Shown: positions 1,560 through 18,013 of the stretch, piece by piece
Numbering within the stretch: position 1 is the stretch's first letter
Layout: every line of letters begins with the position of its first letter
Assembly (NCBI GenBank): GCA_965233705.1
Contig: CBDDTF010000003.1
Span: 1,662,997-1,686,996 of the forward strand
Direction of reading: 5' to 3'
DNA: 24,000 nucleotides
DNA from: Algihabitans sp.
Lineage (GTDB): Bacteria; Pseudomonadota; Alphaproteobacteria; Kiloniellales; DSM-21159
Made by a program: the position numbers and the translations under genes
Notes under the pieces: model-generated
What the model saw: the letters and a program-made list of their open reading frames with translations, nothing else
Database searches by the model: none
Told to the model about the DNA's origin: nothing

Positions 1560-2285
1560 TCATTGGGCAAGCCATCTTCCATATGCCTGAATATCGATCA
1601 TGGGAACGGTCCCGCTGAATTGAAGCTGAGAAATCAGATTGAAAAGAAATGCCGTTGCAGGCTTGCCGCCATCCTCGAAGACGTAATCGTTGCTCTGCTC
1701 GTCAAACCGGAAAAGCCCATGAGCTGCCACACACCCCATGTTCAACTTGCCATCGCCTCCATCCGCAGCCAGCGCACTTCGCAGCGCCTCGCCTAAGGGC
1801 GGATTCCAATCACTCTCGAACGTGAGGATGCCGCCGAGGATCGGGATTAGGGGCTTTGGGTCGTAGACACCACCTGCATGGGGGATAGGAAGGCTGGTTC
1901 GATGCAGCCGTCGGACGCTTGCCGCCTTTTCCTGGGCGTATTTGACGTAGTCGCCGTTTATGGATTGTTTGGCCTCGAAGACCGCGTAGACGCTTTCCGC
2001 CGGTATCACCTTTTCACCTTCAAAATTGAATATGAAAGGCGAGTACTGACGGTCAAAAATCACAACATCTATCTGCTGACTGAAGGTGCCCTGACTGTCA
2101 ACGACGTGCGCCTTTTCAGCTTGGTAGCGGGCAGGTAGGTAGTCCTGAAAGAGCTTCAGCCAAATCTTCTCACTTGCATCCCCCTTCGTTCCGGGGTGGC
2201 CAAAGCTCTGCCGTGCCGTTTGCAGACGGCTTTGTATGTCCTGATGGAGGCTTTCCAGGACCTTGGCTAGCGACCATGTGGTCAC
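1560..2285 (-). CDS. nucC: NucC-like CBASS effector endonuclease (restriction-endonuclease fold)
   Basis: 241 aa with a PD-(D/E)xK-type signature I-D73-x30-E104-A-K106 (QQIDVVIFD...VYAVFEAKQ). It is the last gene of the CD-NTase/HORMA/TRIP13 operon. Its GTG start overlaps the upstream stop (GTGA). Confidence 0.8.
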   Translation of the reverse strand: MTTWSLAKVLESLHQDIQSRLQTARQSFGHPGTKGDASEKIWLKLFQDYLPARYQAEKAHVVDSQGTFSQQIDVVIFDRQYSPFIFNFEGEKVIPAESVYAVFEAKQSINGDYVKYAQEKAASVRRLHRTSLPIPHAGGVYDPKPLIPILGGILTFESDWNPPLGEALRSALAADGGDGKLNMGCVAAHGLFRFDEQSNDYVFEDGGKPATAFLFNLISQLQFSGTVPMIDIQAYGRWLAQ

Positions 2286-3223
2286 GACACGCCCTCCCGA
2301 AACGGCGGAGTCGGTTCCATCCCTCGGGCAATCTCGATTGCCCGCTTCGGATCGATCGGTTTGTTTGGATACGCATCCAGGACGAGCGTCGGCAGCAACC
2401 GTTGCGTAAGGTCGGAGAATGTAAAGCCGTATGCACGACCATTCATCTGGCCAGTGGCGGCAACCAGTTGATTCAGGTCTGGCTGCGAGAAGCCAAGCTC
2501 ACCCAGAGAGCGCTGAAGCACTGACAGGCGTTGCACTTCATTGGGGCGACTAAAGGCCATGATGTCGGCCGCGCGCCGCTTGACTGCGGGGTCCATTGCC
2601 CCGAGGCGGTTAGAGCACATGATGATGGCAGCAGGCACGCGTGCGTTGGCGATCGTGTCAATTCCGCGGATGAATGCGTTAACGCCCGCGCGATCTTCAT
2701 GGTGCATCTGCGCGGCCTCACGGGACTGAGCCAGCGCATCTGCTTCGTCCACCAAAAGAATTAGCCCGCCACGGGCCTTGCCCGTACTGCCTTTTAGCTT
2801 CATGGCCTGGGACAGCGTGTAATCGAAGGCGGCCGAGAGAAGTTGTGTCATTTCGCCAACACGACCCTGCCCTCTACTTGACAGGCTCAGCGGCAACAAG
2901 GTGATGTCAATGTCTTCTTGCCGTGCGACAGCATCACCGATCGTTTCAGCAAGTTCGGTTTTCCCCGACCCCACGTCGCCGGCGAGCACGACAAGAGGCG
3001 GGCGCCTCAGGACTGTATCCATAATGACAGTCCGTCCAGCGTGATGCTTCCGCGCCCATGCCTCCAATCCGGCGGGGTTTACGAGCAGCCCAAGGGCCTT
3101 CGTCAGGCGCGTTTTGTGATCGTCCAAGCCGACAAGCTGAGCCAGACGCTCCCGAGCGGAAACATCAGGATAGCTGATGCGCCGGTCGAACAACTCATCG
3201 ACGTTGACGGTACTGTTCATCAC
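2282..3223 (-). CDS. cap6: TRIP13/Pch2-like AAA+ ATPase (CBASS Cap6)
   Basis: Walker A LAGDVGSGKTE and Walker B LILLVDEADAL. About 313 aa, located between the HORMA-size gene and the nuclease. The start (GTG 3223 or ATG 3220) overlaps the upstream stop. Confidence 0.85.
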   Translation of the reverse strand: MMNSTVNVDELFDRRISYPDVSARERLAQLVGLDDHKTRLTKALGLLVNPAGLEAWARKHHAGRTVIMDTVLRRPPLVVLAGDVGSGKTELAETIGDAVARQEDIDITLLPLSLSSRGQGRVGEMTQLLSAAFDYTLSQAMKLKGSTGKARGGLILLVDEADALAQSREAAQMHHEDRAGVNAFIRGIDTIANARVPAAIIMCSNRLGAMDPAVKRRAADIMAFSRPNEVQRLSVLQRSLGELGFSQPDLNQLVAATGQMNGRAYGFTFSDLTQRLLPTLVLDAYPNKPIDPKRAIEIARGMEPTPPFREGVS

Positions 3224-3735
3224 CAGCTCCTCACGGTAGCCCGGTCGAGGGCTCTGCCGCCCGCCGAATAGGTCTTATCGGAAACCAGATATCCATTGAT
3301 GCCCGGTTCCGGTGCGCCGTTTCGTTGAAGAGGCAAGGTTCGTTTGAAGGCCTCCCGTTCGTCGGAAGTCAGCGCATCCCATGCGGCGCTATAGGTGAGA
3401 TAGCTGTAGAACGAGGCGCCGGAAGTATCGGCATTGGGGGAGACACGGCCGGGATCATCATCATTGGCCGCCATACCCGCCAAATCCTTCGCAGTGTACC
3501 GGACCGTGGGGGCAATCCAGTCGCCATTGCGGCGAAAGCCGTAAGTGACGGTTCCCAGATACCCTGCTTTCAACAGGTCTATGACCTCGGCTTCGTACTC
3601 GGCGATGTCGGCATCGCTCGGTGCGCCATAGAAGCGCTGCATCCGCTTCAGGTCGGCCGCCACCTTCGCCGCCATGTGTCTGGCGTGCGTAACGGTGAAG
3701 GTCGTGGTTTCGGAGATGGTGTAGCTATAGCTCAT
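3220..3735 (-). CDS. cap7: Bacterial HORMA-domain protein (CBASS Cap7), assigned by size and position
   Basis: 171 aa, sandwiched between the CD-NTase and the TRIP13-like ATPase exactly as in type III CBASS. I can read no catalytic motifs. The assignment is contextual, not from a recognised sequence signature. Confidence 0.65.
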   Translation of the reverse strand: MSYSYTISETTTFTVTHARHMAAKVAADLKRMQRFYGAPSDADIAEYEAEVIDLLKAGYLGTVTYGFRRNGDWIAPTVRYTAKDLAGMAANDDDPGRVSPNADTSGASFYSYLTYSAAWDALTSDEREAFKRTLPLQRNGAPEPGINGYLVSDKTYSAGGRALDRATVRSW

Positions 3736-3743
3736 GGCTGCTC

Positions 3744-4709
3744 TCAGACCTGAAAAGACGGACCGAACACTTTCTGCCAGTAGCGGACGGTCTCTTGTTT
3801 GGTGGGTGCCGCAAGCGCCGCATCGATCGCATCGCCGGCGTCCAGCGCCGCCTCAAAAATCGCTTCCGCTTGGGCTTGGGTGTAGAGCCGGCTGACGTTG
3901 TTGTCGGCGTTCACCGGATCGATGATCTGTACGGGCTCTGTGAAGGTTCCGACTGCTGACTGAGGATAATAGTCGTTGAAGATTATTCGCTCCCGCAGGC
4001 CGGTCTGGCCGAGGTAGGTGAAGAAGTGCTGCAACGCCTCCGGGTAATCGGAAAAATCCAACCCCTCGTCCGCCAGGTGGGACAGAATCATTTCGACCAT
4101 GAAGGATTTGAAGCGGAAGCCATCATTCTCACGCTTCATATTCCTCGCCCAGAACTTCACAAGACGGACAACTTGGGCGAAATGGGTTTCCTGTGCCTGC
4201 TTGCGCTTGCGGGTGAATTCGAGGTGCAGGGGGATGCTGGTCTTGAGAAACGATCCGTCGTCCTGACTGACCAGGTTCCCGAACCACTGTGGGTCGCCAT
4301 CGTAGAGGATGGGAACGACATCTACGTCCAGTCCCGAGCCGCGAAACGAGACGGTCACACTGTAGGTCTGCGGCTTCACCTGATCGGGGCTGAAGTTGGG
4401 AAACGCCTTGCGAAGCCGCTCCGCGAGGTACTCCAACAGCGCAGCGATATCGGCGGGCGCGTCGGCGCCGCTGATGTAGCAGCCCACATCGATGTCGTTG
4501 AGGGAACGCAGCGCAGTGCCCTTCGCCAAGCTGCCCGAGAGGAGCATCTTCTTGAGGGTGAAATCCGGATGCTCGCTCAGATAGCCTTCCAGGCGCTCGC
4601 GCAGACGGCGGGCCTGGGCACGGTACTCGTCGGCCTTGTCCTTGGGCAGATTCACCCGCTCCTGCGCAAAGCGAGCGATGTCACTATGGTCTACATGTTG
4701 CCGTCCCAC
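3744..4709 (-). CDS. cdnC: cGAS/DncV-like nucleotidyltransferase (CD-NTase), CdnC-like by operon type
   Basis: Pol-beta NTase signature G59-S60 (LLSGSLAKGT), D72-x-D74 (NDIDVG) and a third acidic cluster GLDVDVVP. The GTG start at 4709 is preceded by GGAGG 7 nt upstream. It is the first gene of the four-gene operon. Confidence 0.85.
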   Translation of the reverse strand: MGRQHVDHSDIARFAQERVNLPKDKADEYRAQARRLRERLEGYLSEHPDFTLKKMLLSGSLAKGTALRSLNDIDVGCYISGADAPADIAALLEYLAERLRKAFPNFSPDQVKPQTYSVTVSFRGSGLDVDVVPILYDGDPQWFGNLVSQDDGSFLKTSIPLHLEFTRKRKQAQETHFAQVVRLVKFWARNMKRENDGFRFKSFMVEMILSHLADEGLDFSDYPEALQHFFTYLGQTGLRERIIFNDYYPQSAVGTFTEPVQIIDPVNADNNVSRLYTQAQAEAIFEAALDAGDAIDAALAAPTKQETVRYWQKVFGPSFQV

Positions 4710-4739
4710 TGACCGGCCTCCGGCTGAATTTCTCTAGAT

Positions 4740-4755
4740 GTGGCCACTAGGCCAC
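4740..4755. promoter_or_regulatory. 16-bp palindrome GTGGCC-acta-GGCCAC in the CBASS 5' leader
   Basis: Perfect 6-bp arms with a 4-nt spacer, between the candidate CBASS promoter and the cdn start codon. Function unknown. Confidence 0.35.
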
Positions 4756-4775
4756 CTTGGCACGCAGCATGATGT

Positions 4776-4840
4776 ATGTTCGAATATCGGACTGTCAAGG
4801 GAAGAATTTGACATTCGATGTTCGATGCCCCATATTTATG
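4776..4840. promoter_or_regulatory. Back-to-back divergent sigma70-like promoters with shared ATGTTCGA operator-like motifs
   Basis: A TTGACA lies on the minus strand (4793-4798) and another on the plus strand (4808-4813), 9 bp apart. The plus promoter is TTGACA-N17-CATATT with a tandem TTCGATG-TTCGATG (4814-4827) in its spacer. The minus promoter spacer holds the near-palindrome ATGTTCGAATAT (4776-4787). The 8-mer ATGTTCGA occurs in both spacers (4776-4783, 4818-4825). Confidence 0.5.
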
Positions 4841-4889
4841 TGTAAGAGGAGAGAGATAGGCTCTCTCCCGCGAAGGAGGAGGCAGCACC

Positions 4890-6128
4890 ATGGACCCGGT
4901 TGAGCTTGGACGCCGCTTGCGCATTGCTCGTGAGGCACGGGGCCTGAGCCAGCAGGCCGCGGCGGACGCCATTGGCGTGCCCCGGACGGCGATTACCCAG
5001 ATGGAATCGGGGAATCGCGCTGTCTCGACTCTGGAGCTGACCAAGCTCGCAGAGCTTTACCGCCGCCCGGTGACCTATTTCTTTGAGGAAGCCGCTCCGG
5101 CGGAAGAAGAGGATGTGCTGGTCGCGCTACATCGCGTTGCCCCGGGTCTGGAGCAGGATTCGGCAGTCCGTGATCAGGTGGATCGTTGCCTGAGCCTATG
5201 CCGTGACGGTGTCGTCCTGGAAACCGTACTGGGGCTCGCACCCCGGTCCGGCCCTCCGGCGTACGAGCTGCGCGTTCCTCGTACCGTCGGCGAAGCTATC
5301 GTTCAAGGAGAGCAGGTGGCGCAGGAGGAAAGGCGCCGCCTCAGCATTGGCAATGCCCCGATCCCTGACGTATCGGAGCTGATTGGCGCGCAGGGTATTT
5401 GGGCATCCGGCCTTGCGCTCCCAAATCACATGTCCGGCCTTTTTATGCGCCACCCTTCGATTGGGTTGGCAATCATTGTAAACGCGTCCCACCCGCGTGG
5501 GCGAAAGAGGTTTTCATACGCTCATGAATATGCCCACTCTCTCATGGATCGTGACCACAATATAACGATTTCAAGTACCGATAATTCTGCGGAACTTGTG
5601 GAGAAGCGTGCGAATGCTTTTGCGGCATCTTTCCTCATGCCGAGAGACGGCGTGTATGAGGTTCTGAGAAGTCTCGACAAGGGGCTTCCAAGCCGTCAGG
5701 AGCAATCGATCTTTGATGCTGCCAGCGGTGGGCAAATTGAAGCTGAAGCTCGTTCGGCACCTCGCTCTCAGCGCATTACCTACAAAGATGTAGCGATCGT
5801 AGCGCATCATTTCGGTGTGAGCTATCAGGCCGCCCTCTACAGACTGAAAAGCCTCAAGCATGTTTCTCAGCCGGAATCCGTTGAGCTCCTGGAGCATGAG
5901 GATTTCGGCCGACAGTATCTCAATGCACTGAGCATGTTCGGTGATGTTGGAGAGCAAGAGCAGCGGCAATACTGGGATCGTGAGCTGCGCAGTGAAATTG
6001 CGCACCTTGCGATTGAAGCCTATCGGCGCGAGGAAATTTCCCGCGGGCGCCTACTGGAGCTTAGCAAGAGCCTCGACATTCCGGGAGAAACCCTCCTTGA
6101 ACTAGCCGAAGTGGCCCGCGGGGAGTGA
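4890..6128 (+). CDS. Fused XRE-family HTH + ImmA/IrrE (COG2856) zinc metallopeptidase
   Basis: The N-terminus LGRRLRIAREARGLSQQAAADAIGVPRTAITQMESGNRAVSTLELTKLAELY is a classic Cro/C1 HTH. HEYAH (aa 212-216, nt 5523-5537) in SYAHEYAHSLMD, followed by ANAFAASFLMP, is the ImmA/IrrE signature. Strong SD: AGGAGGAGG. Confidence 0.85.
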   Translation: MDPVELGRRLRIAREARGLSQQAAADAIGVPRTAITQMESGNRAVSTLELTKLAELYRRPVTYFFEEAAPAEEEDVLVALHRVAPGLEQDSAVRDQVDRCLSLCRDGVVLETVLGLAPRSGPPAYELRVPRTVGEAIVQGEQVAQEERRRLSIGNAPIPDVSELIGAQGIWASGLALPNHMSGLFMRHPSIGLAIIVNASHPRGRKRFSYAHEYAHSLMDRDHNITISSTDNSAELVEKRANAFAASFLMPRDGVYEVLRSLDKGLPSRQEQSIFDAASGGQIEAEARSAPRSQRITYKDVAIVAHHFGVSYQAALYRLKSLKHVSQPESVELLEHEDFGRQYLNALSMFGDVGEQEQRQYWDRELRSEIAHLAIEAYRREEISRGRLLELSKSLDIPGETLLELAEVARGE

Positions 6129-6137
6129 ACCAAAGGC

Positions 6138-6656
6138 ATGATCCGTGCGAGCCCGTCAATCATCGTTTCGGATACGTCCGTTCTTGTGAACTTTCTCCGA
6201 ATCAACCGCATGGACCTCATCGCTGGCTACTCTCATGACTTCATCGTTACGGATCACGTCGCCGCGGAAATCACCGACCATTACCCTGACCAACAAGCAC
6301 GCTTTGCCGCGGCCCAGGCAGCAGGAATGCTCCAACAGGTGAGTATCACAGATCCGGCGGAAGTCGCGTTGTTTGGAAGTCTCGCCGCTTCCGGTCGTCT
6401 GGGTGCGGGCGAATGTTCCGCGATTGCACTTGCCTCACACCAAGGGCACATCCTGGCGATCGATGACCGCCGCGCATCAAACCATGCGCGCCGTGTCAGC
6501 CGGCATCTCCAGATTCTGACAACCCAGGACCTGATGGTTTCTATGATCGGTGAAAACCTGTTGGACGTGCCGCAAGCTGATACCATCAAGGACGAATGGG
6601 CGAGCAATCATCGTTTCCGCCTTACAATTCAAAGCTTTGCGGACCTCGTCTCGTGA
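6138..6656 (+). CDS. PIN-domain (DUF3368-like) nuclease
   Basis: It has the N-terminal IIVSDTS acidic motif, then GAGECSAIALA and LAIDDRRA, the usual PIN acidic quartet arrangement. It starts 9 nt after the HTH-peptidase stop. Confidence 0.7.
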   Translation: MIRASPSIIVSDTSVLVNFLRINRMDLIAGYSHDFIVTDHVAAEITDHYPDQQARFAAAQAAGMLQQVSITDPAEVALFGSLAASGRLGAGECSAIALASHQGHILAIDDRRASNHARRVSRHLQILTTQDLMVSMIGENLLDVPQADTIKDEWASNHRFRLTIQSFADLVS

Positions 6657-6744
6657 AGGATGCTCAATATCTTCCCCGGGACAGTGTGCATGGAAAAATA
6701 GGGGCCGTCGAAACGACACAAGCACGGATGACGCCGAGGCAGGT

Positions 6745-9741
6745 TTAGGTTCCCGCTTCTTCCCGCACCTCCCGCAGCGCCCGATTGAAGAAGTGGCGGA
6801 TCGCTTGCTCGCGGGCTTGCGGATCGCTCAGCACGATGTTCTTCATCTCGTTGTCGCGCTGGAACATCTTGATGGCGCCCTTGAAGAACGCCTGACTGAA
6901 GGCGGAGAAGACCACGTCCGGCGGGTTGTTCCGCAGCATTTCTGTCAGGTCTTCGTCCATGATCTCGCGGTTGACCTGCTCGAAGCGGATAAAGTCCTCG
7001 CGCGAGAACTCCGTGCCGTGGCGGTCATTGAACGCCTTGATGATCTCGGAGAGCGAACGCTCTTCCTCTTCTGTGTAGGGCTTAGCGGCGAATTCGCTGA
7101 TGGGCTTGAGCTCTTCTGTGTCGCCGGCCGCAAGTGATGCTGACCCCTGCTCCTTCTGCTCGACACGAAACGCCTGAAGGCGGAGCATCTCCTCGGTAAT
7201 CTCGACATCGGGCGGTATTTCCCGGTTCGGCAGCAACCGCGACAGCCAGGCGGCGTAGGAATAGAGCTTTTCAAGCCCGGTATCGCCAAGCCGGATGACC
7301 TGCGCCACGAAACTGTAGAAGCGCATGTAGCTCTTCACCAGTTGGCGGAACTCTTCCTGCCGCCCCTCGTCATCCTCGGCCTCGAAACGGGCCACGGCCT
7401 GCCGTACCAGCCCTTCTAATCGGGCGCGGTCATGGGTGTCGAGCGCACCCTTGTAGAAGGTCTCGGCGAAGCGATCGATTTCGCCCTGGTCGAGGATGCC
7501 GAAGGTTTTGAGGCGTGCTTCCAACTCGTAAATCTGGTTGGGGTCGGAGTTTGCCTCCAGCCCTGTCACCTCAAAGAACGGCTTGAAGGCGTTCTGGATA
7601 TCCTCTGTGGTGTTCTGGAAGTCGAGGACGTAGGTGCGATCCTTGCCCGGATAGGTACGATTGAGGCGCGAGAGCGTCTGAACGGCCTGAAGGCCGGCGA
7701 GCTTCCGGTCCACATACATCGCGCACAGCTTCGGCTGGTCGAAGCCCGTCTGGTACTTCTCGGCGACAATCAGCACCTGATAGGCATCCGAATCGAAGCG
7801 GCGCGGAAGCTCGGTCTCGGCGAAGCCGTTCAGTTCGGCTTCAGTGTACGTTTGCCCGTCCACCTCCAGGTCGCCCGAAAACGCGACCAGCGGCTTCACA
7901 TCGGTGTAGCCATTGGCCTTGATGTAGTCGCGAACGCCAAAGTAGTAGCGAAGCGCATGCTCGCGGCTGCCTGTGACAATCATAGCCTTGGCGCGGCCGT
8001 CCAACTCGTCCATCACATGGCGGCGGAAGTGCTCGACGATCACTTCAACCTTCTGGCCGATGGCGGTCGGATGGAGGGAGGCGAAGCGTGCCACGCGACG
8101 CTGGGCGCGGCGGGTGTTCAGCTCGGGGTCGTCCTCGATGGCCTTTTCGAGCTGGTAGTAGGCTTTGTAGGTCATGTAATTCTGGAGCACGTCCAGAATG
8201 AAGCCTTCCTCGATGGCCTGGCGCATCGAGTAGAGGTGGAAAGGCTGCGGCAGCCCGTCCGCCCCCTTCGTCCCGAACCGCTCCAGCGTCACGTTGCGAG
8301 GCGTTGCGGTGAAGGCGAAATAGCTGATGTTCGGCTGCGGCCCGCGGGCTTTCTGATAGTCGGCAATCAGATCCTCGATATCGCGGCCGTCCTCGGTCTC
8401 GTCGCGCGTCAGCGCATCGCTCATGGCCTGCGCGCTCTTGCCGGACTGACTGCCATGGGCCTCGTCGATGATGACGGCAAAGGTGCGGGTCCCCTGGCCG
8501 GACAACTCCTTCAGGTGGTCGGTCGAGAACTTCTGGATGGTGGTGATGACGATGCGTGCACCGGCCTCCAGAGCCGCCTTCAACTGGCGCGAGGTGCCGT
8601 CGATTTTCTTCACCACGCCCTTGGTCTGCTCGAACTGCGCCACCGTGTTCTGGAGCTGGCGGTCGAGCACAACGCGGTCGGTAACGATGACGGCCGAATC
8701 GAAGATCGGCCTGTCGGCATCGTCATGCAGATTGGTGATCTGATGCGCCGTCCAGCCAATGGTATTGGACTTGCCGGAGCCAGCCGAGTGCTGGATCAGG
8801 TAGTTATGGCCTGGGCCGAAGCCGCGGGCGTGCATCATCAGCTTGCGCACCGCGTCGAGCTGTTGGAAGCGCGGGAAGATCAAGGTCTCCCGAACTTCGG
8901 TCGAACCGCTTGCCGTCGGCGTCTCCTGCCGCTCCAGATGGAGGAAGCGTCCGATGACGTCGAGCAACACGTCCCGCGACAACACTGCCTTGCCTTCGGG
9001 CTGGTCGGCATAGAGGTAGGCCACACGGAAGTCGCCGGCGACGTCGGGATTTCCGGCGCCGCCGTCCCGCCCGCGATTGAACGGCAGAAACCGTGTCTTG
9101 CCGTTCTGGAGGCGCGTCGTCATCGAGATATTGTCCTCGTCCATCGCGAAATGGACGAGCGCCCCGCGCTTGAAGGTCAGGAGAGGCTCACCGGCCGGAG
9201 AACGGTCGTAACGGTACTGCTTCTCGGCGTGCCGGAAGGTAGAGCCGGTCAGGAGGTTCTTCAGCTCCGCCGTTGCCACCGGCAGGCCGTTGACAAACAA
9301 CGCCACGTCAATGGCGTTCTCCGAGCGCTGACTGTAGCGGAGCTGACGGATGATTGAGAGGATGTTGGCCTCATAGAGCCGAACCAACTCGGCGTTCAAC
9401 CCGGACGCGGGCTTGAAGAAGCAAAGCGTCAGCTTGATGTTGGGGATGAGCTTCAGCCCCTGCCGCAGTACGTCGAGCGTGCCGCGCGTCTTCAGCGCCT
9501 TCTCAAGCTGCTTGAAAAATTCGGCTTCGGCGGCGGTGGTGTACTGCGCCTCCAGCTTCCGCCACTCGTCAGGTTGCGTCTCCTTGACGAAGCGAAGGAC
9601 AAGCCCGCGGTCCATGGCAAGGGCGCGGTCATACTCGTCCGGCTGTCGGGCGACATAGCCCTGTGAGGCCATCAGATGGTCCACCATGTGCTGTTCAAGC
9701 ACGATCTCTTGGTGCGCGTTCTGGGCGGCGTGCTTTGTCAT
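6745..9741 (-). CDS. hsdR: Type I restriction enzyme R subunit (helicase-nuclease)
   Basis: 998 aa with Walker A HSAGSGKSNT and a DEAH box (IIDEAHGSQSG). It is the last gene of the hsdM-hsdS operon, with an ATGA overlap with the upstream gene. Confidence 0.93.
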   Translation of the reverse strand: MTKHAAQNAHQEIVLEQHMVDHLMASQGYVARQPDEYDRALAMDRGLVLRFVKETQPDEWRKLEAQYTTAAEAEFFKQLEKALKTRGTLDVLRQGLKLIPNIKLTLCFFKPASGLNAELVRLYEANILSIIRQLRYSQRSENAIDVALFVNGLPVATAELKNLLTGSTFRHAEKQYRYDRSPAGEPLLTFKRGALVHFAMDEDNISMTTRLQNGKTRFLPFNRGRDGGAGNPDVAGDFRVAYLYADQPEGKAVLSRDVLLDVIGRFLHLERQETPTASGSTEVRETLIFPRFQQLDAVRKLMMHARGFGPGHNYLIQHSAGSGKSNTIGWTAHQITNLHDDADRPIFDSAVIVTDRVVLDRQLQNTVAQFEQTKGVVKKIDGTSRQLKAALEAGARIVITTIQKFSTDHLKELSGQGTRTFAVIIDEAHGSQSGKSAQAMSDALTRDETEDGRDIEDLIADYQKARGPQPNISYFAFTATPRNVTLERFGTKGADGLPQPFHLYSMRQAIEEGFILDVLQNYMTYKAYYQLEKAIEDDPELNTRRAQRRVARFASLHPTAIGQKVEVIVEHFRRHVMDELDGRAKAMIVTGSREHALRYYFGVRDYIKANGYTDVKPLVAFSGDLEVDGQTYTEAELNGFAETELPRRFDSDAYQVLIVAEKYQTGFDQPKLCAMYVDRKLAGLQAVQTLSRLNRTYPGKDRTYVLDFQNTTEDIQNAFKPFFEVTGLEANSDPNQIYELEARLKTFGILDQGEIDRFAETFYKGALDTHDRARLEGLVRQAVARFEAEDDEGRQEEFRQLVKSYMRFYSFVAQVIRLGDTGLEKLYSYAAWLSRLLPNREIPPDVEITEEMLRLQAFRVEQKEQGSASLAAGDTEELKPISEFAAKPYTEEEERSLSEIIKAFNDRHGTEFSREDFIRFEQVNREIMDEDLTEMLRNNPPDVVFSAFSQAFFKGAIKMFQRDNEMKNIVLSDPQAREQAIRHFFNRALREVREEAGT

Positions 9742-10322
9742 CTGGCGGATTTCCCTTCTCCGCAGGCGACAGCGGCGATTACGCCGACCAGTGCCGTCAC
9801 GAGAGCCGACATAGCCGATTGAAGGTGGTGCAGATTGACGTGATACTCGCCGTCAATCGGCCGATCGGTTTTGGCGCCACGATCATAAGTCAGGTTGTAG
9901 CGAAAGGCCGTGGAGTTGGGGTCGATGGCGCCCAGCTCCCTCATTCTGTCGATGATCCAGTCAGGCACGTCTGCGTCGAATTCTGACCTTATGAAGGTTT
10001 GATACTCTTGCGACAAAGCATCGAGATTATGCGTCTTTGCGGCGTCCCGCATAATCGCCTTCAGAAATAACTCGATAGAATGTCGATAGAGATAGAGCAC
10101 AGGGTTTGCGACTTCATAATCCGCCACCTGTTGATGCTTTATGGCCTCGACAAGCGCGCTAGCTGCATTGAAGTATTGTTGGCCAAGGCGCTGAAAGCGC
10201 TGGTTCGCTCCACCACCTACAAGGAAGCCTAATGGCTCGGACCATTCGTCGGGCCGCTCGATTGCTGCCGTTGGGTCCTCAAACAAGGGCCGATGCATCT
10301 GCTCTGCGGTGAAAACACTCAT
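9738..10322 (-). CDS. Hypothetical 194-aa protein with a hydrophobic C-terminal tail, embedded in the type I R-M operon
   Basis: The start is set at ATG 10322 (MSVFTAEQ...), which overlaps the Mrr-like stop (ATGA); its own stop overlaps the hsdR start (ATGA). It has no recognisable catalytic motif. The C-terminus AMSALVTALVGVIAAVACG is a roughly 19-residue hydrophobic stretch. Confidence 0.6.
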   Translation of the reverse strand: MSVFTAEQMHRPLFEDPTAAIERPDEWSEPLGFLVGGGANQRFQRLGQQYFNAASALVEAIKHQQVADYEVANPVLYLYRHSIELFLKAIMRDAAKTHNLDALSQEYQTFIRSEFDADVPDWIIDRMRELGAIDPNSTAFRYNLTYDRGAKTDRPIDGEYHVNLHHLQSAMSALVTALVGVIAAVACGEGKSAR

Positions 10323-11362
10323 GCGTCGCCCCCCGATATCGGCGCCCAAATCTGTTTGAGGGGCAGCTTGGCGCGGGTCTCGTCGGACAGTTCGCCATAG
10401 GCGCGGAACAACGCCTTCAACAGGTCCGGCATCTGCCAGAGGCGCAACTTGAAGAAGTTGTTGTCCAGTTCCTTCTGCGCTGCCGCGTTCACACCGCCGA
10501 TGCTGACCAGAAGACCGGTTCGCGCTTGTGTGTTCGACACCGAACCGATCAGCCGCAGCACAACGTCATGATTGGCCGCCCCATCGCCGGACTTCACCTG
10601 CACGCAGATGCGATCCTCGCCAAGGCCGAGTGTGCCGCCGGCCGCGAGGATGTCCACGCCACCGTCGGCGCCAGGCGGCGATACCTTGGTTGTGTAACCC
10701 TCCACGCGCAGAATTTCGGCCACTAGGTCGGCCAGGGCATGACCGGCGAACTCGGACTTGATCAGCGAAATGATCTGCTGGTTGGCGATATCCTCGATAT
10801 CGGTGGCGTAGTCCTCCGCCTCCACGTCCTCGTCGGGAGCTGGTGCCGATGCCTTGCCCTGCTTGCCGAGAAGGGAGCCGGGGTCACTGCCAGTCTTCAG
10901 GACAGCGCGGACCCGCTCCAGCGCCGAATTGCGCTTGATCTCGCAGATGGTCATGAACGCGCCGAAGGAATGCCGTAGGTCCTGCTTGAAGGCGTCGCGC
11001 GCAACGGACTCTTCCAGCCACTTCACCGCGCGGGAATGGCGATAAGGGTCGTTGGGATCGAAAGCGTATTCCCCCGTTACCTCGCCGATGGCGACGCCGT
11101 TCGTCACCTTCCGCGGCATAACCACAAGGTCGCCGACCTGGATGGTATGGGCAAACTGGTTTAGCTGGGCGGCAAAATTCTTCAGCCGGTTCTGTCCCGC
11201 GTCGGGCATTACCTGTTCAAGATGGACGAGAATGGCGTCTCGGCCCTTGAGCGCGCCCAAGTCGCCAACTTCGAGGAAGCCGGGCAGAAGCCTACCCTGC
11301 TCGATGGCAGCCAGCTCGCGCTCGCCCTGCTTGCCAGCCCGAACAATCCATAAGCGGCTCAT
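10319..11362 (-). CDS. Mrr-family (type IV-like) restriction endonuclease with an uncharacterised N-terminal domain
   Basis: The C-terminal half PPGADGGVDILAAGGTLGLGEDRICVQVKSG matches the Mrr catalytic core (GDGGIDG...VQAKR in E. coli Mrr). The N-terminal ~160 aa (MSRLWIVRAGKQGE...) is not the winged-helix Mrr_N. ATGA overlaps at both ends. Confidence 0.8.
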   Translation of the reverse strand: MSRLWIVRAGKQGERELAAIEQGRLLPGFLEVGDLGALKGRDAILVHLEQVMPDAGQNRLKNFAAQLNQFAHTIQVGDLVVMPRKVTNGVAIGEVTGEYAFDPNDPYRHSRAVKWLEESVARDAFKQDLRHSFGAFMTICEIKRNSALERVRAVLKTGSDPGSLLGKQGKASAPAPDEDVEAEDYATDIEDIANQQIISLIKSEFAGHALADLVAEILRVEGYTTKVSPPGADGGVDILAAGGTLGLGEDRICVQVKSGDGAANHDVVLRLIGSVSNTQARTGLLVSIGGVNAAAQKELDNNFFKLRLWQMPDLLKALFRAYGELSDETRAKLPLKQIWAPISGGDA

Positions 11363-12603
11363 GACGCCATCTCCCGCTGGATGGCGTCCAGTCGCCTGTC
11401 AGGCTCACCCCGCTTGCCCCAGGTAGCGACGTCGATCTGGCCAGTGACGGCAGCGGTGATCAGGGCGGCGCGGAACTCCTGGAGGCGCTCAATTGAGGCG
11501 GCAACCTTGTCGAATACGGGTTCTCTCGCAGCTTGTGCGGCTTGAAATCGCGTTAAAAGATCGAACTGAACCTGCCTATCAGGAACCCAAAGCCGGTAGT
11601 TTCCGAGAGTTTCGCGATTGATCTTGGGCATCGCGACACGCATGGACTCAAGCGTCGCCCAATCGGTGAACTTCCGCGAAAGCAATTGCACTAGCAGGAA
11701 CTCTGGCAAAAGGCGCTTGTCCGGCAGGATGGGGTACATGTCGGCGCTGCACATGCCGGATTGTGGTGCTATGCATGCCTTTGCCAGCGCAGGACGAATC
11801 TTGCTGTAGAGGACCGTGCCGGCGGGGTAGGCGTACTTGCCGCTGATCGCTCCCTGTTCTTCGGCGGTCTCGACCTGCAATAGGCGTCCCGTAGCAGATT
11901 GAATGTGGTTGGGTGCAATCAATGGCTGATTGGTCCAGCGTGGATCGGTGGGATCAACCTGACCCTCCGCGATGCGGCAGACCCACCGGAAGGGGATCAT
12001 CTCCTCGAAGATCATTTCGGCCGGAGTGGTCGCCTCTTCGCGCAGGGCCGCAAGCCCCTCCGCCAGAACCTCCAGCAAACGTTGCTTTTTCTCGATCAGC
12101 CGATCGATGCGGGCGGTCTCGCGGTCGAGGAAATCCGCGATGGCTTTTTGGGTGGGAAGGTCCGGAAGCGGAATTCGCTCTGCGCGTAACCTGTCACGCG
12201 AAAGCTCTATGAAGGTCGTACCTTGGCCGGCAGCCTCTAGCTTTGGCTTAATGGCAGACAAAGCCCAATATGCAAAATCAGAGCGAGCCATTGGCCGAGG
12301 CACCAAACCACGACACCCTTGGTTGAAGCACATGGGCCGTGAAGCAACGGCGATATGACCAATCGGAGCACGGATCGAAAGAATGATGGACCCGGCTGGC
12401 ACCATCTGAGTGCCACAGCTCGAATATCCCTCACGCGTTATACTGCGTTCGCCACAATCTATAGAGCGCGTCTTCAGTTTGCCCAGATCAGCAGGGCCGA
12501 CCCATGGTATGTCTCCGTCCCAGTAGGCCGGTTCGGCGGAAGCAGGGGTTGCCCCGTTCCGAACATCGAAAGCTGCACCGATAGGGACTCCTTGAAAGGT
12601 CAC
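11359..12603 (-). CDS. hsdS: Type I R-M specificity subunit
   Basis: 414 aa with two TRD-like halves separated by the conserved coiled spacer (...QKAIADFLDRETARIDRLIEKKQRLLEVL...). The C-terminal helix is RLQEFRAALITAAVTGQIDV. GTGA overlap with hsdM. Confidence 0.88.
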   Translation of the reverse strand: MTFQGVPIGAAFDVRNGATPASAEPAYWDGDIPWVGPADLGKLKTRSIDCGERSITREGYSSCGTQMVPAGSIILSIRAPIGHIAVASRPMCFNQGCRGLVPRPMARSDFAYWALSAIKPKLEAAGQGTTFIELSRDRLRAERIPLPDLPTQKAIADFLDRETARIDRLIEKKQRLLEVLAEGLAALREEATTPAEMIFEEMIPFRWVCRIAEGQVDPTDPRWTNQPLIAPNHIQSATGRLLQVETAEEQGAISGKYAYPAGTVLYSKIRPALAKACIAPQSGMCSADMYPILPDKRLLPEFLLVQLLSRKFTDWATLESMRVAMPKINRETLGNYRLWVPDRQVQFDLLTRFQAAQAAREPVFDKVAASIERLQEFRAALITAAVTGQIDVATWGKRGEPDRRLDAIQREMAS

Positions 12604-14627
12604 GCCGTCACCTCCTTCAGAAGCCCTGCAATCTCGGCCTCCAGAGCCTTCAGCTCGGCGTCTATCTGCTCCAGCGGGCGCGGCGGGACATAGCGGTAGA
12701 AGTAGCGGTTGAAGTTGATCTCGTAACCGACGCGTCCCACCTCGCCGTCGCGGGCATCGCGGTAGCTCTCGTCCACCCAGGCATCGGGTACGAAGGGTTT
12801 GACCTCGCGCGCAACGTAGTCCCGCCAGTCCTCCTTGAGCGGCACCAGCTCGTGGTCGCGCAGGTCGGTGTCCGGCTCGGGGTTTCCATCCTTGTCGGTG
12901 CAGATGTCGGCCTCTTCGTCTCGCTCCGACAAGGCAGAAAGAATAGCTTTGCGGACAGGCGCCGCAATCTTGAGCCCAGCGCTCTTCAGCGCCTTGGTCA
13001 ACGCCTTGTCGAAGGCGTCACGATTGGTGAACAGCGTGCTCGGCAAGCGAGAGAACAGCCCGTCAAGGATGTCGGCCTGCTCACCGGCGTCGAGCTTGCC
13101 GAACGCCTTCTCCGCCTTCAGGCGCTCGATGCGCTCCGCCGTGGCCTGGAAGTTCAGCCGCAAGGGCCGTTCGACGCGGATTTCCCGATAGCCGAAGTCA
13201 GTGGTGTCGAAGATCTTGGAGAACTCGCCGTACTCACCGTTACCGTTCAACATTTCGGCATAGATGCGGACGATTTCCTTGCGCGCTCCCTCGGGGATTT
13301 CCCGGCGCTTGGAGCCGAGCGACTTGCGCATGGATTTCCAGAACCGCTCGCCGCTGGCGTCAATGAGCTGCACCTTGCCGCGTCGCGCCTTCGGCTTGCG
13401 ATTGGTCAGTAGCCATACATAGGTCTGAATGCCGGTGTTGTAGAACAGGTCGGTGGGCAGGGCGACGATGGCCTCGACGAGGTCCTTCTCCAGCATCCAG
13501 CGGCGAATTTCGCTTTCGCCCGAGCTCGCGCCGCCGGTGAACAGCGGCGAGCCGTTCATGACGATGCCGATGCGCGAACCGGTTTCGTCGTCGCGCATCT
13601 TGGCGATCATATGCTGGAGGAACAGCAACTGCCCGTCGGAAATCCGCGGCAAGCCGGCGCCGAAGCGACCGTCGAAGCCCAGCGTCTCGGCCTCTTCCTT
13701 GATCGGGTCCTGGTACTTCTTCCAATCAACGCCATAGGGCGGATTGGAGAGCATGTAGTGGAAGGATTTGCCCTTGTGGGCGTCGTTCGTCAGCGTGTTG
13801 CCGAAGGCGATTTGCTCGGGGTCGTGGCCGGTGACGAGCATGTCGGATTTGCAGATGCCGAAGGACTCCCCGTTCAGCTCCTGCCCGAACAGCTCGACGC
13901 GGATGGAGGGGTTGAAGTCCTTCAGCGCTTCCTCGGTCAGCGCCAGCATGCCGCCGGTGCCGCAGGCCGGGTCATACACCTGGCGGATGATACCCTTGCC
14001 GGTCAGCTTGGTGTCGTCGTTGGCGATCAGCAGTTCGACGATGAGGCGGATGACCTCGCGCGGGGTGAAATGCTCACCGGCCGTCTCGTTGGAGATTTCC
14101 GAGAACCGGCGGATCAGGTCCTCGAACAGATAGCCCATCTCGATGTTGCTCACCCGGTCAGGGTGCAGGTCGATCTGGGTGAAGCGGTCGAACACCTGCC
14201 AGAGGATGCCGCCTTCGTTCAGGCGCTTGAGCTGGTCGGTGAACAGGAATTTGTCGAGAAAGATATCGCGGACGTTGCCGGAAAACTTGGTGATGTAGTC
14301 GATCAGGTTGGCATGGAGCTGGCCGGGGTCCTGCGCCTTCAGGCTTTTGAAGGTGAAGGCGCTGAGGTTGTAGACCTTGATGTTGCTGCCGGCCGCGCCG
14401 AACAGAATCATGTCGCGGGTTTCGTCGTCAACGCCGTCCGGCAGGCCCTTGGCGGCGTCGAGCACGTCCGCCTTCGATGCCTCAAGGATGCAATCGAGGC
14501 GTCGGAGCACGATGAAGGGAAGGATGACCTTGCCATATTCGGATTGCTTGAAGTCGCCGCGCAGGATTTCCGCGATCGACCAGACGAAGCCTCCGAGGCT
14601 TTGAACCTTGGCGTTTGCCCCTGACAC
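12600..14627 (-). CDS. hsdM: Type I R-M N6-adenine DNA methyltransferase subunit
   Basis: NPPYG motif IV (MLSNPPYGVDW), SAM motif I (VYDPACGTGGML) and an HsdM_N-like LRGDFKQSEYGKVILPFIVLRRLD. The start is set at GTG 14627 (SD GGAGGGG upstream), not at the 777-aa ORF start, which would run through the upstream HTH gene. Confidence 0.9.
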   Translation of the reverse strand: MSGANAKVQSLGGFVWSIAEILRGDFKQSEYGKVILPFIVLRRLDCILEASKADVLDAAKGLPDGVDDETRDMILFGAAGSNIKVYNLSAFTFKSLKAQDPGQLHANLIDYITKFSGNVRDIFLDKFLFTDQLKRLNEGGILWQVFDRFTQIDLHPDRVSNIEMGYLFEDLIRRFSEISNETAGEHFTPREVIRLIVELLIANDDTKLTGKGIIRQVYDPACGTGGMLALTEEALKDFNPSIRVELFGQELNGESFGICKSDMLVTGHDPEQIAFGNTLTNDAHKGKSFHYMLSNPPYGVDWKKYQDPIKEEAETLGFDGRFGAGLPRISDGQLLFLQHMIAKMRDDETGSRIGIVMNGSPLFTGGASSGESEIRRWMLEKDLVEAIVALPTDLFYNTGIQTYVWLLTNRKPKARRGKVQLIDASGERFWKSMRKSLGSKRREIPEGARKEIVRIYAEMLNGNGEYGEFSKIFDTTDFGYREIRVERPLRLNFQATAERIERLKAEKAFGKLDAGEQADILDGLFSRLPSTLFTNRDAFDKALTKALKSAGLKIAAPVRKAILSALSERDEEADICTDKDGNPEPDTDLRDHELVPLKEDWRDYVAREVKPFVPDAWVDESYRDARDGEVGRVGYEINFNRYFYRYVPPRPLEQIDAELKALEAEIAGLLKEVTA

Positions 14628-14821
14628 TATTCCCCTCCCCGTTTCTTCGCTTCCGCCGACTGCTGCTCGATCCACTTGTCGATCTCGCCGCGCCGGAACC
14701 GCCAGGCCCCGCCGACCTTGAAGCCGGGAATCTTTCGCTCGGCCGCGAGGCGATAAGCCGTCTTCTCGGTGAGCTTGAGATATCCAGCCACCTCCCGGAT
14801 CGTCATGATGTCGGTGTCCAT
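14627..14821 (-). CDS. Small excisionase-family HTH protein translationally coupled to hsdM
   Basis: MDTDIMTIREVAGYLKLTEKTAYRLAAERKIPGFKVGGAWRFRRGEIDKWI is the HTH_17 pattern. Its TAG stop shares one nucleotide with the hsdM GTG start (TAGTG). Confidence 0.7.
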   Translation of the reverse strand: MDTDIMTIREVAGYLKLTEKTAYRLAAERKIPGFKVGGAWRFRRGEIDKWIEQQSAEAKKRGGE

Positions 14822-14904
14822 ACGGCTCCCCGCCGGAACATCCAGCCCGTATTGAGAAAATACGGGAAGAAATGGGAAATGCCAAGCGGAAGACCGCCAT
14901 GGTC

Positions 14905-15477
14905 CTATTCCGCTTGCCCGCCCCGTCGTGCACACGGAAGGTGGCGGTACAGCGTTGAAACCGACACGCCTACGCGCTGAGCAACCTCAGCGACAGTGAT
15001 CTCTGGATTGCGGAGAAGCTGTCGAGCGTCGCGAATACCCTCCTTCGACAATCCAGGCGGCCGGCCGCCCTTGCGGCCTCGGGCGCGAGCGGCTTCAAGC
15101 CCGGCCGTTGTCCTTTCGCGGATCATGGCGCGCTCGAACTCCGCCAGGGCGCTGAAAACATGGAACACGAGCATGCCGCCGGCGGTCTTCGTGTCGATCA
15201 TCTCGGTCAGAGAGCGGAAGCCCATGCCCTTCGACTGGAGAAGCTGCACCGTGTCGATGAGCTGGCGCATCGACCGGGCCAGGCGGTCGAGTTTCCAGAC
15301 GACAAGCGCGTCGCCAGGTCGCATGTAGTCCAGCGCCTTGAGAAGCTCAGGCCGGTCACGCTGCGCACCGGAAGCAGTCTCGGTGAAGATGCGTTCACAT
15401 CCGGCCGCCTCAAGGGCGTCGGTTTGAAGCGTCAGATTTTGTTCGGCTGTCGAAACTCGGGCGTAACCAATATTCAC
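14905..15477 (-). CDS. Serine recombinase (resolvase/invertase family)
   Basis: (V)NIGYARVSTAEQNLTLQTDAL carries the catalytic Ser motif, followed by VVWKLDRLARS and a C-terminal HTH (ITVAEVAQRVGVSVSTLYRHL). The start is set at GTG 15477. The longer 218-aa ORF would read through the luxI-operon terminator hairpin. Confidence 0.88.
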   Translation of the reverse strand: MNIGYARVSTAEQNLTLQTDALEAAGCERIFTETASGAQRDRPELLKALDYMRPGDALVVWKLDRLARSMRQLIDTVQLLQSKGMGFRSLTEMIDTKTAGGMLVFHVFSALAEFERAMIRERTTAGLEAARARGRKGGRPPGLSKEGIRDARQLLRNPEITVAEVAQRVGVSVSTLYRHLPCARRGGQAE

Positions 15478-15545
15478 TCTCTCGAAAATCCATAAATTTA
15501 ACACGGACAGTGTATCAGATTTCGACGCACAGTTTTGAGAAATAC

Positions 15546-15574
15546 AGAAGGGCGGAAACACGTTCCGCCCTTCT
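15546..15574 (-). terminator. Rho-independent terminator of the luxI-orf61 transcript
   Basis: AGAAGGGCGGAA-cgtgt-TTCCGCCCTTCT is a perfect 12-bp stem, followed on the minus strand by GTATTTCT. It lies 16 nt after the orf61 stop. Confidence 0.8.
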
Positions 15575-15590
15575 CAGAACAGCCGCCCTG

Positions 15591-15776
15591 TCAGTATCGG
15601 TCGTTTTTGCGAGGTGGTTTCACCGCATCCAATGCCGCCGCCGTCTCATCAAAACCGGCACGCCGTGCTTCATCCGCGAGATAGCGGATGCACCACGCAA
15701 GCCTGTCGGCTTCGGTGCGGGAAGGTTGCTCGCTGCCATACGGCGCAGACGCGGGCCATTCGGTATCGTGCATCAT
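15591..15776 (-). CDS. Hypothetical 61-aa protein translationally coupled to the AHL synthase
   Basis: ATGA overlap with the luxI-family stop, GC-rich third codon positions, and a terminator directly downstream. No recognisable domain. Confidence 0.5.
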   Translation of the reverse strand: MMHDTEWPASAPYGSEQPSRTEADRLAWCIRYLADEARRAGFDETAAALDAVKPPRKNDRY

Positions 15777-16450: not shown

Positions 16451-16467
16451 CCTGTCAACCTCCACAG
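16451..16467 (-). promoter_or_regulatory. lux-box-like palindrome CTGTGGAGGTTGACAGG (copy 1)
   Basis: CTG-N10-CAG architecture, with an exact 17-mer copy at 18288-18304. It lies immediately upstream of, and overlaps the SD of, the luxI-family gene. Confidence 0.45.
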
Positions 16468-16489
16468 GTTACTGGCAAGTAAAGCGCAT

Positions 16490-18012: not shown

Positions 18013-18013
18013 G

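Follow-up and report, generated by a model that had tools for sequence, protein, structure and literature searches.

The stretch of DNA considered here, called the window throughout, comprises 24,000 nucleotides (nt) of Algihabitans sp. (Alphaproteobacteria; GenBank assembly GCA_965233705.1, contig CBDDTF010000003.1, positions 1,662,997 to 1,686,996 of the forward strand). It contains a gene, at 4890-6128, that joins an XRE-type helix-turn-helix (HTH) domain and an M78/IrrE zinc peptidase in one chain of 412 amino acids (aa). This fused gene is followed by a VapC-like PIN-domain gene and lies back to back with a type III operon of CBASS, the antiphage signalling system that is based on cyclic oligonucleotides. 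The two genes are described below together with the DNA that separates them from the operon, and their possible roles, as a controller of CBASS and as a toxin-antitoxin (TA) system, are weighed.

Fused gene, PIN partner and intergenic region

The features of this part of the window are as follows.

1560-4709, minus strand: type III CBASS operon, CdnC-HORMA-TRIP13-NucC
4709-3744, minus strand: CdnC (PADLOC cyclase 3e-148; NCBIfam CBASS_cyclase_a 4.9e-128)
3735-3220, minus strand: HORMA (bacHORMA_1 3.8e-64; PADLOC HORMA 9.9e-89)
3223-2282, minus strand: TRIP13 (PADLOC 3.9e-132)
2285-1560, minus strand: NucC (PADLOC NucC-type effector 1.6e-111)
4769-4798, minus strand: predicted outward (CBASS) promoter, -35 TTGACA at 4798-4793, 18-nt spacer, -10 CATCAT at 4774-4769; 10/12 match
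4776-4794, no strand: operator candidate O_L, ATGTTCGAATATCGGACTG, which fills the spacer of the outward promoter; from repeats D2, I1 and I2
4808-4836, plus strand: predicted fused-gene promoter, -35 TTGACA at 4808-4813, 17-nt spacer, -10 CATATT at 4831-4836; from the promoter scan
4812-4827, no strand: operator candidate O_R, CATTCGATGTTCGATG, inside the spacer of the fused-gene promoter; from repeat D2
4890-6128, plus strand: fused regulator/antitoxin gene, 412 aa, XRE HTH, M78/IrrE zinc peptidase and helical C-terminal domain
4917-5081, plus strand: XRE-type HTH DNA-binding domain, aa 10-64 (Pfam HTH_3, E 2.7e-13)
5127-5135, plus strand: candidate self-cleavage site L80-H81-R82 in the linker between HTH and peptidase, from invariance and alignment to the 'FRR' of 9vzy_A
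5337-5864, plus strand: M78/IrrE peptidase fold with HEYAH, E238, the RANAFAA motif and an internal HTH-like motif at aa 296-325 (Pfam and PADLOC)
5865-6125, plus strand: all-helical C-terminal domain, aa 326-412 (AlphaFold2 helices 327-410), probably toxin-neutralising
6138-6656, plus strand: VapC-like PIN-domain gene, 172 aa, COG2405/DUF3368 type, 9 nt past the stop codon of the fused gene; probable toxin

The fused gene starts with an ATG preceded by a GAAGGAGGAGG ribosome-binding site. In its product the Pfam domain Peptidase_M78 covers aa 191-259 (E 1.2e-16), HEYAH occupies aa 212-216 (nt 5523-5537) and E238 (nt 5601-5603) is a candidate third zinc ligand. An earlier, sequence-only reading of the window had described such a 412-aa chain with an HTH and a HEYAH peptidase, divergent from CdnC-HORMA-TRIP13-NucC; the open reading frame (ORF) and the HTH_3 and Peptidase_M78 matches bear out the first description, the PADLOC and NCBIfam matches and a gap of 180 bp the second. 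The C-terminal domain of ~190 aa that it had also described has to be divided. In the AlphaFold2 model (predicted local distance difference test, pLDDT, 73.6; predicted template modelling score, pTM, 0.65), an HTH bundle (aa 3-56) is followed by a long linker helix (91-113), an alpha/beta peptidase core (161-261) and helices at aa 298-321 bearing the IrrE-family FGVSYQAALYRL helix-turn-helix-like motif; the IrrE-type fold, this motif included, runs to ~325 and the separate helical domain comprises aa ~326-412 only.

Among 25 homologues of 67-91% identity, the invariant residues comprise R32, T33, A34, T36, E39 and R43 of the HTH recognition helix, L80 and R82 of the linker, and H212, E213, H216, E238, R240, A241 and N242 of the peptidase. 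At E<=1e-10 there are 2838 homologues, and most of the top 120 have 410-412 aa. In PADLOC, 15 RmrA models match the protein and give its best score (top 5e-26, aa 7-257); the capP match (3.2e-17) spans model positions 16-123 of 242 only, and capH gives 7e-7. The NCBIfam match to RamB is weak and confined to the HTH.

The best sequence match in the PDB is 9vzy_A (E 2.4e-12 with the single sequence, 1e-14 with the family profile), a 393-aa 'HTH cro/C1-type domain-containing protein' present as three chains per entry. It aligns with aa 9-257 and 296-325, the FGVSYQAALYRL motif falling on its residues 279-308. We infer that this chain is VapB52-delta23 of Mycobacterium tuberculosis, since its length, chain count and 'DFRRLDG' sequence fit the protein of PMC13273310; the code itself was not found in the text of that paper. 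L80|H81 is a reasonable candidate for the cleavage site of the fused protein, because the 'FRR' of VapB52 aligns with L80-H81-R82 and CapH is cleaved at F82|R83. When the full-length model (pLDDT 73.6) was compared by Foldseek with the PDB (library to 2026-04-08), C.BclI, C.AhdI, DdrO and the CapH N-terminal domain 7t5u were returned, all via the HTH, and nothing beyond that domain, which makes this search uninformative on the peptidase and C-terminal parts.

The only cysteines of the protein, C100 and C104, lie in the linker. This CxxxC pair (window 5187-5201), one turn apart in the linker helix, is invariant at identities of at least 67% and kept down to ~56%; it is absent from a 49% homologue and from VapB52.

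The downstream PIN protein matches Pfam PIN weakly (E 0.0029) and the PADLOC model PDC-S70 at 3.5e-14. PIN is all that a direct Pfam scan finds on it, PF11848 being annotated on its homologues instead; PF11848/DUF3368 (the COG2405 PIN cluster) is found on these homologues and on the genes downstream of the fused gene in loci L014 and L016-21. Its AlphaFold2 model has a pLDDT of 91, and all its top Foldseek matches are VapC toxins (target-normalised template modelling score 0.6-0.7), among them Pyrococcus horikoshii VapC4, M. tuberculosis VapC11 and a Shigella VapC, in a library that runs to 2026-04-08 and may lack 9vzy. Residues D12, E44, D109, D110 and D148 are invariant across the homologues. 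Of the 81 loci with enough sequence, 77 have a PIN homologue as the gene next downstream of the fused one; the two genes are often 9 nt apart or overlap by 4 nt, and, given this constant arrangement, the pair forms a two-gene operon. The PIN gene, which the sequence-only reading had treated as incidental, is thus the one constant partner of the fused gene.

The gap between the fused gene and CdnC (4710-4889, 180 bp) holds two back-to-back sigma70-like promoters, and a promoter scan of it gave 2 sites against 0.1 expected in shuffles. Among 43 anchored upstream regions TTGACA is the best-conserved element, and homologues whose divergent cargo is unrelated again have a TGTCAA/xGTCAA element upstream. 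The octamer ATGTTCGA has just 2 copies in the window, one in each promoter spacer (4776-4783 and 4818-4825). The family consensus of O_L is a palindrome, ATGTTCGA-N3/4-TCGAACAT, of which the left copy of the window is half of an imperfect version; near-perfect ones are found in L098 and in L100, which reads ATGTTCGAAGTTCGAACAT. A longer string, 'ATGTTCGA..TCGAAC.GTCAAG..TTGACA....ATGTTCGAT', also recurs upstream of homologues with unrelated cargo. With mismatches allowed, 'TTGACA-N3-6-ATGTTCGA(T)' is found in 43 of 72 dereplicated upstream regions, and an upstream window of 150 nt contains on average 0.94 copies of GTTCGA/TCGAAC, as compared with 0.12 in windows drawn at random from these loci. 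The window resembles L014, a locus with 6a-type cargo, in its DNA from 4772, at the outward -10, to the end of the PIN gene. With similarity beginning there and unrelated cargo beyond, the module, as judged from these alignments, brings its own putative outward promoter along with an operator-like site, just past which the cargo is attached.

Two further repeats of the gap were observed. At 4740-4755, in the predicted 5' untranslated region (5'-UTR) of the CBASS transcript between the outward -10 and the CdnC start, lies a perfect palindrome, GTGGCC-ACTA-GGCCAC, which is kept with both arms changed in L001 (TGGCC-GGTA-GGCCA) and L025 (TGGGCC-ATCA-GGCCCA); possible explanations are a hairpin in the RNA and a second site for protein binding, particular to this cargo. 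At 4848-4868, just 5' of the ribosome-binding site of the regulator, lies an inverted repeat, GGAGAGAG-N5-CTCTCTCC, which in L025 is compensated (GGAGAGGG...CCCTCTCC) and at the position of which distant homologues (e.g., L004, L016, L029) have other short GC-rich hairpins. RNAalifold gave no consensus structure for the hairpin of the regulator 5'-UTR, the alignment being poor, and an Rfam scan of the window gave no match.

Cargo and position of the module across loci

Loci carrying homologues were gathered from metagenomes (80, at 50-95% protein identity), genomes (6), plasmids (3) and exact-protein look-ups (8). A single-protein contig scan yielded 6 true relatives only, and the census was supplied by an alignment-based metagenome scan. 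Orientation was counted in those dereplicated loci (n=50) that have 1.5 kb or more of sequence upstream. As read by a crude gene caller, 37 of them (74%) have a divergent gene as their closest upstream ORF (minimum length 100 aa), against 37% of background gene pairs in the same loci. The module is constant in these loci and the divergent cargo varies, as listed here.

CdnC-HORMA-TRIP13-NucC: the window, L001-L003, L025
second type III layout, TRIP13 first: L004 (1.6e-142)
SMODS/DncV-like cyclases: L026/27, L069, L104
patatin with a Cap2-like E2-E1 protein: L029/30
6a-type E2-E1-JAB giants: L014, L034, L043, L052, L100 (patatin in 3 of the 5)
6e multiubiquitin with ThiF (E1): L023
BilC/BilD: L024, L075
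DrmA/DrmB of DISARM (defence island system associated with restriction-modification): L061, L064, L065
QatA: L080, with an apparent homologue in L050
DUF2188: seven loci
AbiEi, an Mrr-like nuclease and unknown operons: further loci

The sequence-only reading had named, as the outcome that would make the adjacency a coincidence, homologues that accompany the PIN gene only and are never found next to CBASS; the homologues in fact adjoin several unrelated CBASS types, with four or more CBASS layouts among them. The cargo also resembles that of bona fide regulators, the CapH/CapP classes given by Lau et al. 2022 (10.1101/2022.04.27.489752) and Chambers et al. 2023 including CBASS, DISARM, 6a, 6e, DUF2188 and Bil. 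In the window the CBASS operon and the module form one co-inherited block, the DNA from the NucC stop to the PIN stop (1562-6646) being 92.6% identical to that of L001.

The slot occupied by the fused gene was compared with that of close CdnC relatives (n=6, 82-88% identity), 5 of which have the same four-gene operon. Divergent from the cyclase, 3 of them have CapH (120-123 aa) with CapP (295 aa), 1 has a CapW/BrxR-type WYL regulator and 2 have other genes. To CapH of the neighbouring lineage the fused protein is 35% identical over the HTH, and to CapP 37% over 82 aa around HExxH. A recent local fusion of CapH and CapP is ruled out by identities this low over such short stretches. Because identity is just 35-37%, the fused protein is, on sequence grounds, a replacement by a different lineage and not the product of a local gene fusion.

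A CBASS relative in which a SAVED effector replaces NucC (L106/L107:2079-4361) carries a different divergent set of four genes in the regulator slot, encoding proteins of 74 aa, 206 aa, 166 aa (with HTH_19) and 312 aa. None of these is annotated as CapH/CapP or CapW, and the set may be another type of regulator.

The genes at 4890-6128 and 6138-6656, together with the cassette at 4769-4836, thus appear to constitute a portable two-gene module that has taken the regulator slot of a type III CBASS. The equivalence of the slot, the variable defence cargo, the divergent orientation and the travelling promoter cassette are the reasons for which the fused protein probably regulates the divergent CBASS operon.

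Controller, toxin-antitoxin system or both

The role in the cell was considered in the light of VapB52. According to Singh et al. (Nucleic Acids Research 2026, PMC13273310), a VapC52 dimer is bound by one VapB52, the C-terminal domain of which occludes the VapC52 active site, and single-stranded DNA (ssDNA) triggers peptidase-dependent self-cleavage of the VapB52 N-terminal domain near the conserved F75-R76, freeing the PIN toxin. The reading towards which we lean is that the window encodes a VapBC52-like, ssDNA-sensing HTH-M78 antitoxin with its PIN toxin, and that, by way of a bidirectional promoter-operator common to both, this module controls the divergent CBASS operon too. The following steps are proposed: (i) in unstressed cells, the N-terminal XRE HTH would sit on the ATGTTCGA-containing sites in both promoter spacers; (ii) so bound, it would repress the operon of the module itself as well as the divergent CdnC-HORMA-TRIP13-NucC operon; (iii) the helical C-terminal domain, possibly with the N-terminal domain, would keep the VapC-like PIN protein inactive; (iv) the peptidase would act in cis, or on another copy of the protein, and cut the linker that joins it to the HTH, probably at L80-H81-R82; and (v) the cut would part the HTH from the remainder, so that CBASS transcription would rise and/or the PIN RNase would be freed. 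In this scheme the domain composition, the intact catalytic motif, the conserved gene pair, the promoter- and operator-like motifs and the comparative context come from the sequences themselves. Self-cleavage triggered by ssDNA and neutralisation of the toxin are taken by analogy from VapB52/VapC52, where they are known; the idea that CBASS is repressed, and derepressed when DNA is damaged, is taken from CapH/CapP.

For step (iii), aa 326-412 are by the same analogy the probable toxin-neutralising part. UPF0175 (PF03683) is the top Pfam match in 7 of 8 C-terminal domains (the sole match in 5; E 0.0095-0.11) and recurs in 9 of 20 further relatives (best E 0.0011), no other family recurring. According to PMC2701414, UPF0175/COG2886 is an antitoxin family associated with PIN toxins. 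The resemblance is a lead, not a finding. In a search of 1.8 billion representatives with the C-terminal domain, the 147 matches were mostly full-length proteins (~400-420 aa) or apparent fragments of the same family, and no clear stand-alone antitoxin was among them.

Several points weigh against this dual role. DNA binding, cleavage, toxicity and regulation are, for the fused protein and its close family, extrapolated from sequence. Having no cysteine between H216 and E238, the fused protein lacks the cysteine-switch loop seen in CapP and VapB52; such a loop follows HExxH in 33% of CapP proteins, and the C100/C104 pair, in reaching the zinc site, might substitute for it. The GAF domain of CapP, which in CapP and IrrE supplies half of the ssDNA groove, is lacking as well: aa 298-410 of the AlphaFold2 model are helices only, with no beta sheet, and Pfam gives no GAF match. 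All the UPF0175 scores (12-17 bits) are below the Pfam cut-off of 27.9. When the PIN protein and its profile were compared with PDB sequences, no chain was matched at E<=1, VapC52 included. The TGTCAA element could be a part of the operator rather than of a promoter. The presence of an intact outward -35 (GTCAA) is not significantly associated with that of a divergent gene (Fisher p = 0.27, with crude gene calls). Since the GC-frame gene caller errs on small ORFs and on frameshifted genes of metagenome-assembled genomes (MAGs; L001, L014, L052), this test is weak either way; the clearest same-strand loci (L071, L085, L079, L086, L015), judged by eye, have no outward -35. About one quarter of the loci have no divergent neighbour, so that the module can exist alone. 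Finally, the release of an RNase while CBASS transcripts are induced looks counter-productive, and both outputs may not operate; the PIN protein might instead be mainly a co-repressor or an addiction factor.

The first and main alternative, which we regard as unlikely, is a pure VapBC52-type TA or abortive-infection module, which would regulate only itself and owe its place beside CBASS to defence-island clustering and co-transfer. It would explain why the PIN gene is constant and the neighbour varies, why some loci lack a divergent gene and have no significant link between -35 and cargo, and why the module is also found in M. tuberculosis. The closest characterised relative is an antitoxin, the best PADLOC models are RmrA antitoxins, and Matelska 2017 (PMC5499597) and Makarova 2009 (PMC2701414) class the HTH-DUF955 and PIN pair as TA. 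Since the PIN gene is the constant partner and the protein is closest to the VapB52 type of antitoxin, the case for the TA role is no weaker than that for the regulator role. Autoregulation only, however, accounts poorly for an excess of divergent neighbours of 74% against 37%, for a cargo set that is largely that of the bona fide CapH/CapP regulators, for CapH with CapP or CapW in the same slot of the closest CBASS relatives, and for an outward sigma70-like promoter with the same operator-like octamer lying in the DNA that moves with the module.

The same regulator-slot and cargo evidence would also suit a pure transcriptional controller, i.e., a single-chain CapH/CapP, for which the PIN protein would be either a co-repressor, as the toxin of canonical VapBC systems is, or an accessory nuclease under the same regulation. 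The Pfam PIN match of the window is, moreover, weak. We nevertheless hold this alternative to be highly unlikely, as the PIN residues D12, E44, D109/D110 and D148 are invariant in a VapC-like fold of pLDDT 91, the gene pairs have the 4-nt overlap or 9-nt gap of TA operons, and the C-terminal domain resembles, below threshold, the UPF0175 antitoxins. Rv2515c rescues cells from the toxicity of the related Rv2514c (TASmania 2019, PMC6504116). That the M78 domain is a ligand-sensing scaffold in the manner of PrpR and RamB, with derepression occurring in the absence of cleavage, is barely credible: such non-proteolytic HTH-DUF955 regulators exist, RamB gives its weak match over the HTH and the modelled peptidase core is of moderate confidence, but HExxH, the downstream Glu and RANAFAA are invariant across the family, Pfam detects no ScfR-type C-terminal domain, and the context is defence and mobile DNA rather than metabolism. 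A metabolic regulator of the PrpR/RamB type is ruled out by the lack of the ScfR domain and by this context.

If the dual role is true, VapBC52-like modules, studied so far as mycobacterial TA systems, would also be widespread controllers of immune operons that sense DNA damage, functionally interchangeable with CapH plus CapP and with CapW at the same slot. Such a module would be a compact switch, made of one protein, that responds to ssDNA and has a defined operator, and it would give a handle on the question, put by the authors of the CapP work, of why only some CBASS operons are transcriptionally gated. A more ambitious version, to which we give somewhat less than an even chance, is that the HTH-M78/PIN pair and its ~65-bp bidirectional promoter-operator are a portable plug-in controller, in which one ssDNA-triggered autoproteolysis has two outputs, derepression of the cargo and release of a VapC-like RNase. 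In that case, almost any defence operon (the CBASS types, 6a, 6e and Bil, DISARM, Qat, DUF2188) could be placed behind the outward promoter; the RNase would be a fast back-up arm for abortive infection or an addiction device stabilising the defence island, and the literatures on the VapBC52 TA system and on the CapH/CapP regulators would merge into one system.

The wider island and comparison with known systems

The wider window is a mobile defence island, with the following genes outside the CBASS operon and the module.

161-1147: tyrosine integrase, beside the NucC end of the CBASS operon
1239-1460: small ORF, 73 aa, also beside the NucC end
6745-14933, minus strand: type I restriction-modification (R-M) operon, with HsdR 6745-9741, HsdS 11359-12603 and HsdM 12600-14933
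9738-10349, minus strand: 203-aa ORF inside the R-M operon, no match in Pfam, PADLOC or NCBIfam
10319-11362, minus strand: Mrr_cat protein inside the R-M operon (PADLOC candidate PDC-S02, 6.4e-132)
14905-15561: resolvase, the first gene of a conjugative-element backbone (14905-23939)
15773-16465: LuxI-type autoinducer synthase, in the backbone
16490-17248: LuxR-type regulator, in the backbone
18514-20109: T4 coupling protein, in the backbone
20531-21766: SIR2_2-domain protein, 411 aa, between coupling protein and relaxase, possibly a defence gene
21848-23545: MobA/VirD2-type relaxase, in the backbone

The layout of integrase and 73-aa ORF is kept in L002/L025, and integrases lie beyond the cargo in 11 loci in all; this suggests that cargo and module sit on small integrative islands. 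In L001 (a 96%-identical relative from a long-read Binatia MAG), each CBASS gene aligns over 4675-7823 as two pieces in different frames, and the outward -35 is CTATTAAG as against CTGTCAAG; the split genes are either assembly errors or decaying cargo beside an intact module. A gene for an M78 protein of 222 aa followed by one for a DUF4411 PIN-like protein lies near the family member of L015 (13085-14333), and a second HTH-M78 gene lies close to that of L017 (16202-17239); modules of the HTH/M78 type seem to accumulate in the same islands.

Among known systems, VapBC52 is the nearest. VapB52 (Rv2515c, 415 aa), as described in PMC13273310, carries an HTH at its N terminus and a C-terminal domain of four helices; in between are the peptidase, with H216/H220/E245, and an internal HTH motif. 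The fused protein shares this order of parts (~412-415 aa, XRE HTH, linker, M78 HExxH near 212-216, internal HTH motif, small helical C-terminal domain), and its PIN gene lies immediately downstream in the same orientation. The two differ in that homology is limited to aa 9-257 and 296-325, in that the C229 cysteine switch of VapB52 has no equivalent, and in that the position of the FR motif is taken by L-H-R, of which L and R are invariant. The PIN protein, of COG2405/DUF3368 type, has no detectable sequence similarity to VapC52. In the available text of PMC13273310, VapBC52 is treated as a TA system and not as the controller of a divergent immune operon.

The resemblance to CapH/CapP (Lau et al. 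2022; Calloji et al. 2026, 10.64898/2026.05.16.725639) consists of the position upstream of and divergent from an immune operon with a shared promoter region, of an XRE HTH and an M78 peptidase with HExxH and a downstream Glu, and of largely the same spectrum of cargo. The fused module departs from it in being one polypeptide with neither GAF, nor cysteine-switch loop, nor the CapH-type C-terminal oligomerisation domain, in carrying an invariant L80-x-R82 in the linker where CapH has its F|R cut site in that oligomerisation domain, and in its obligate PIN partner. The idea of a single-chain counterpart of CapH/CapP, put forward by the sequence-only reading, thus stands as regards regulator position, slot equivalence, cargo classes and promoter cassette; it fails as regards the GAF domain, the cysteine switch and the identity of 35-37%. 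Fusions have been seen before: in Lau et al. 2022 (10.1101/2022.04.27.489752), CapH and CapP are apparently fused in 15 CBASS systems, and a DISARM locus combines a fusion-like protein with a vapC-like gene; of the 15 fusion rows in Table S1 of that work, the 4 examined are all Type II short CBASS of actinobacteria.

The pairing of an HTH-DUF955 (COG2856) fusion with a COG2405/DUF3368 or DUF4411 PIN protein was predicted as a 'three-component' TA system (Makarova 2009, PMC2701414; Matelska 2017, PMC5499597), with identical gene pair and domain composition. As far as the available text of both papers goes, these are computational predictions only, with no link to a divergent defence operon or a shared promoter. 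According to a proposal in the same two papers, the target of the protease is the Xre domain encoded by its own gene, which it would degrade, and self-cleavage of VapB52 was shown biochemically in 2026 (PMC13273310), so that the mechanistic novelty which had been ascribed to a self-cleaving fused chain does not hold.

More distant likenesses were also found. RmrA of RosmerTA (RmrT/RmrA; Millman et al. 2022) is an HTH and zinc-peptidase antitoxin of a defence TA system, but the protein downstream in the window matches PDC-S70 only in PADLOC, and not RmrT. In ImmR/ImmA of ICEBs1 and DdrO/IrrE of Deinococcus, an XRE repressor is likewise inactivated by an M78 protease after DNA damage, and the family profile of the fused protein matches IrrE (3dte) at 9e-5; unlike the module of the window, each of these systems consists of two proteins, governs the excision of an element or a repair regulon, and has no toxin partner. 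CapK/CapS and VapKSC (EMBO J 2026, PMC13373217) follow the same theme in evolution: their controller of immune operons senses ssDNA and has a counterpart that serves a VapC toxin as its sensor, and it is built from unrelated proteins (GHKL kinase and STAS); the regulator and TA versions are separate loci there, whereas here they would be one locus.

The fused architecture and its adjacency to CBASS and DISARM (2022), the gene pair (2009, 2017) and self-cleavage (2026) are already published. What is added here is the comparative synthesis of a constant PIN partner, a swappable cargo and a travelling promoter/operator, which links the literature on VapBC52 with that on CapH/CapP.

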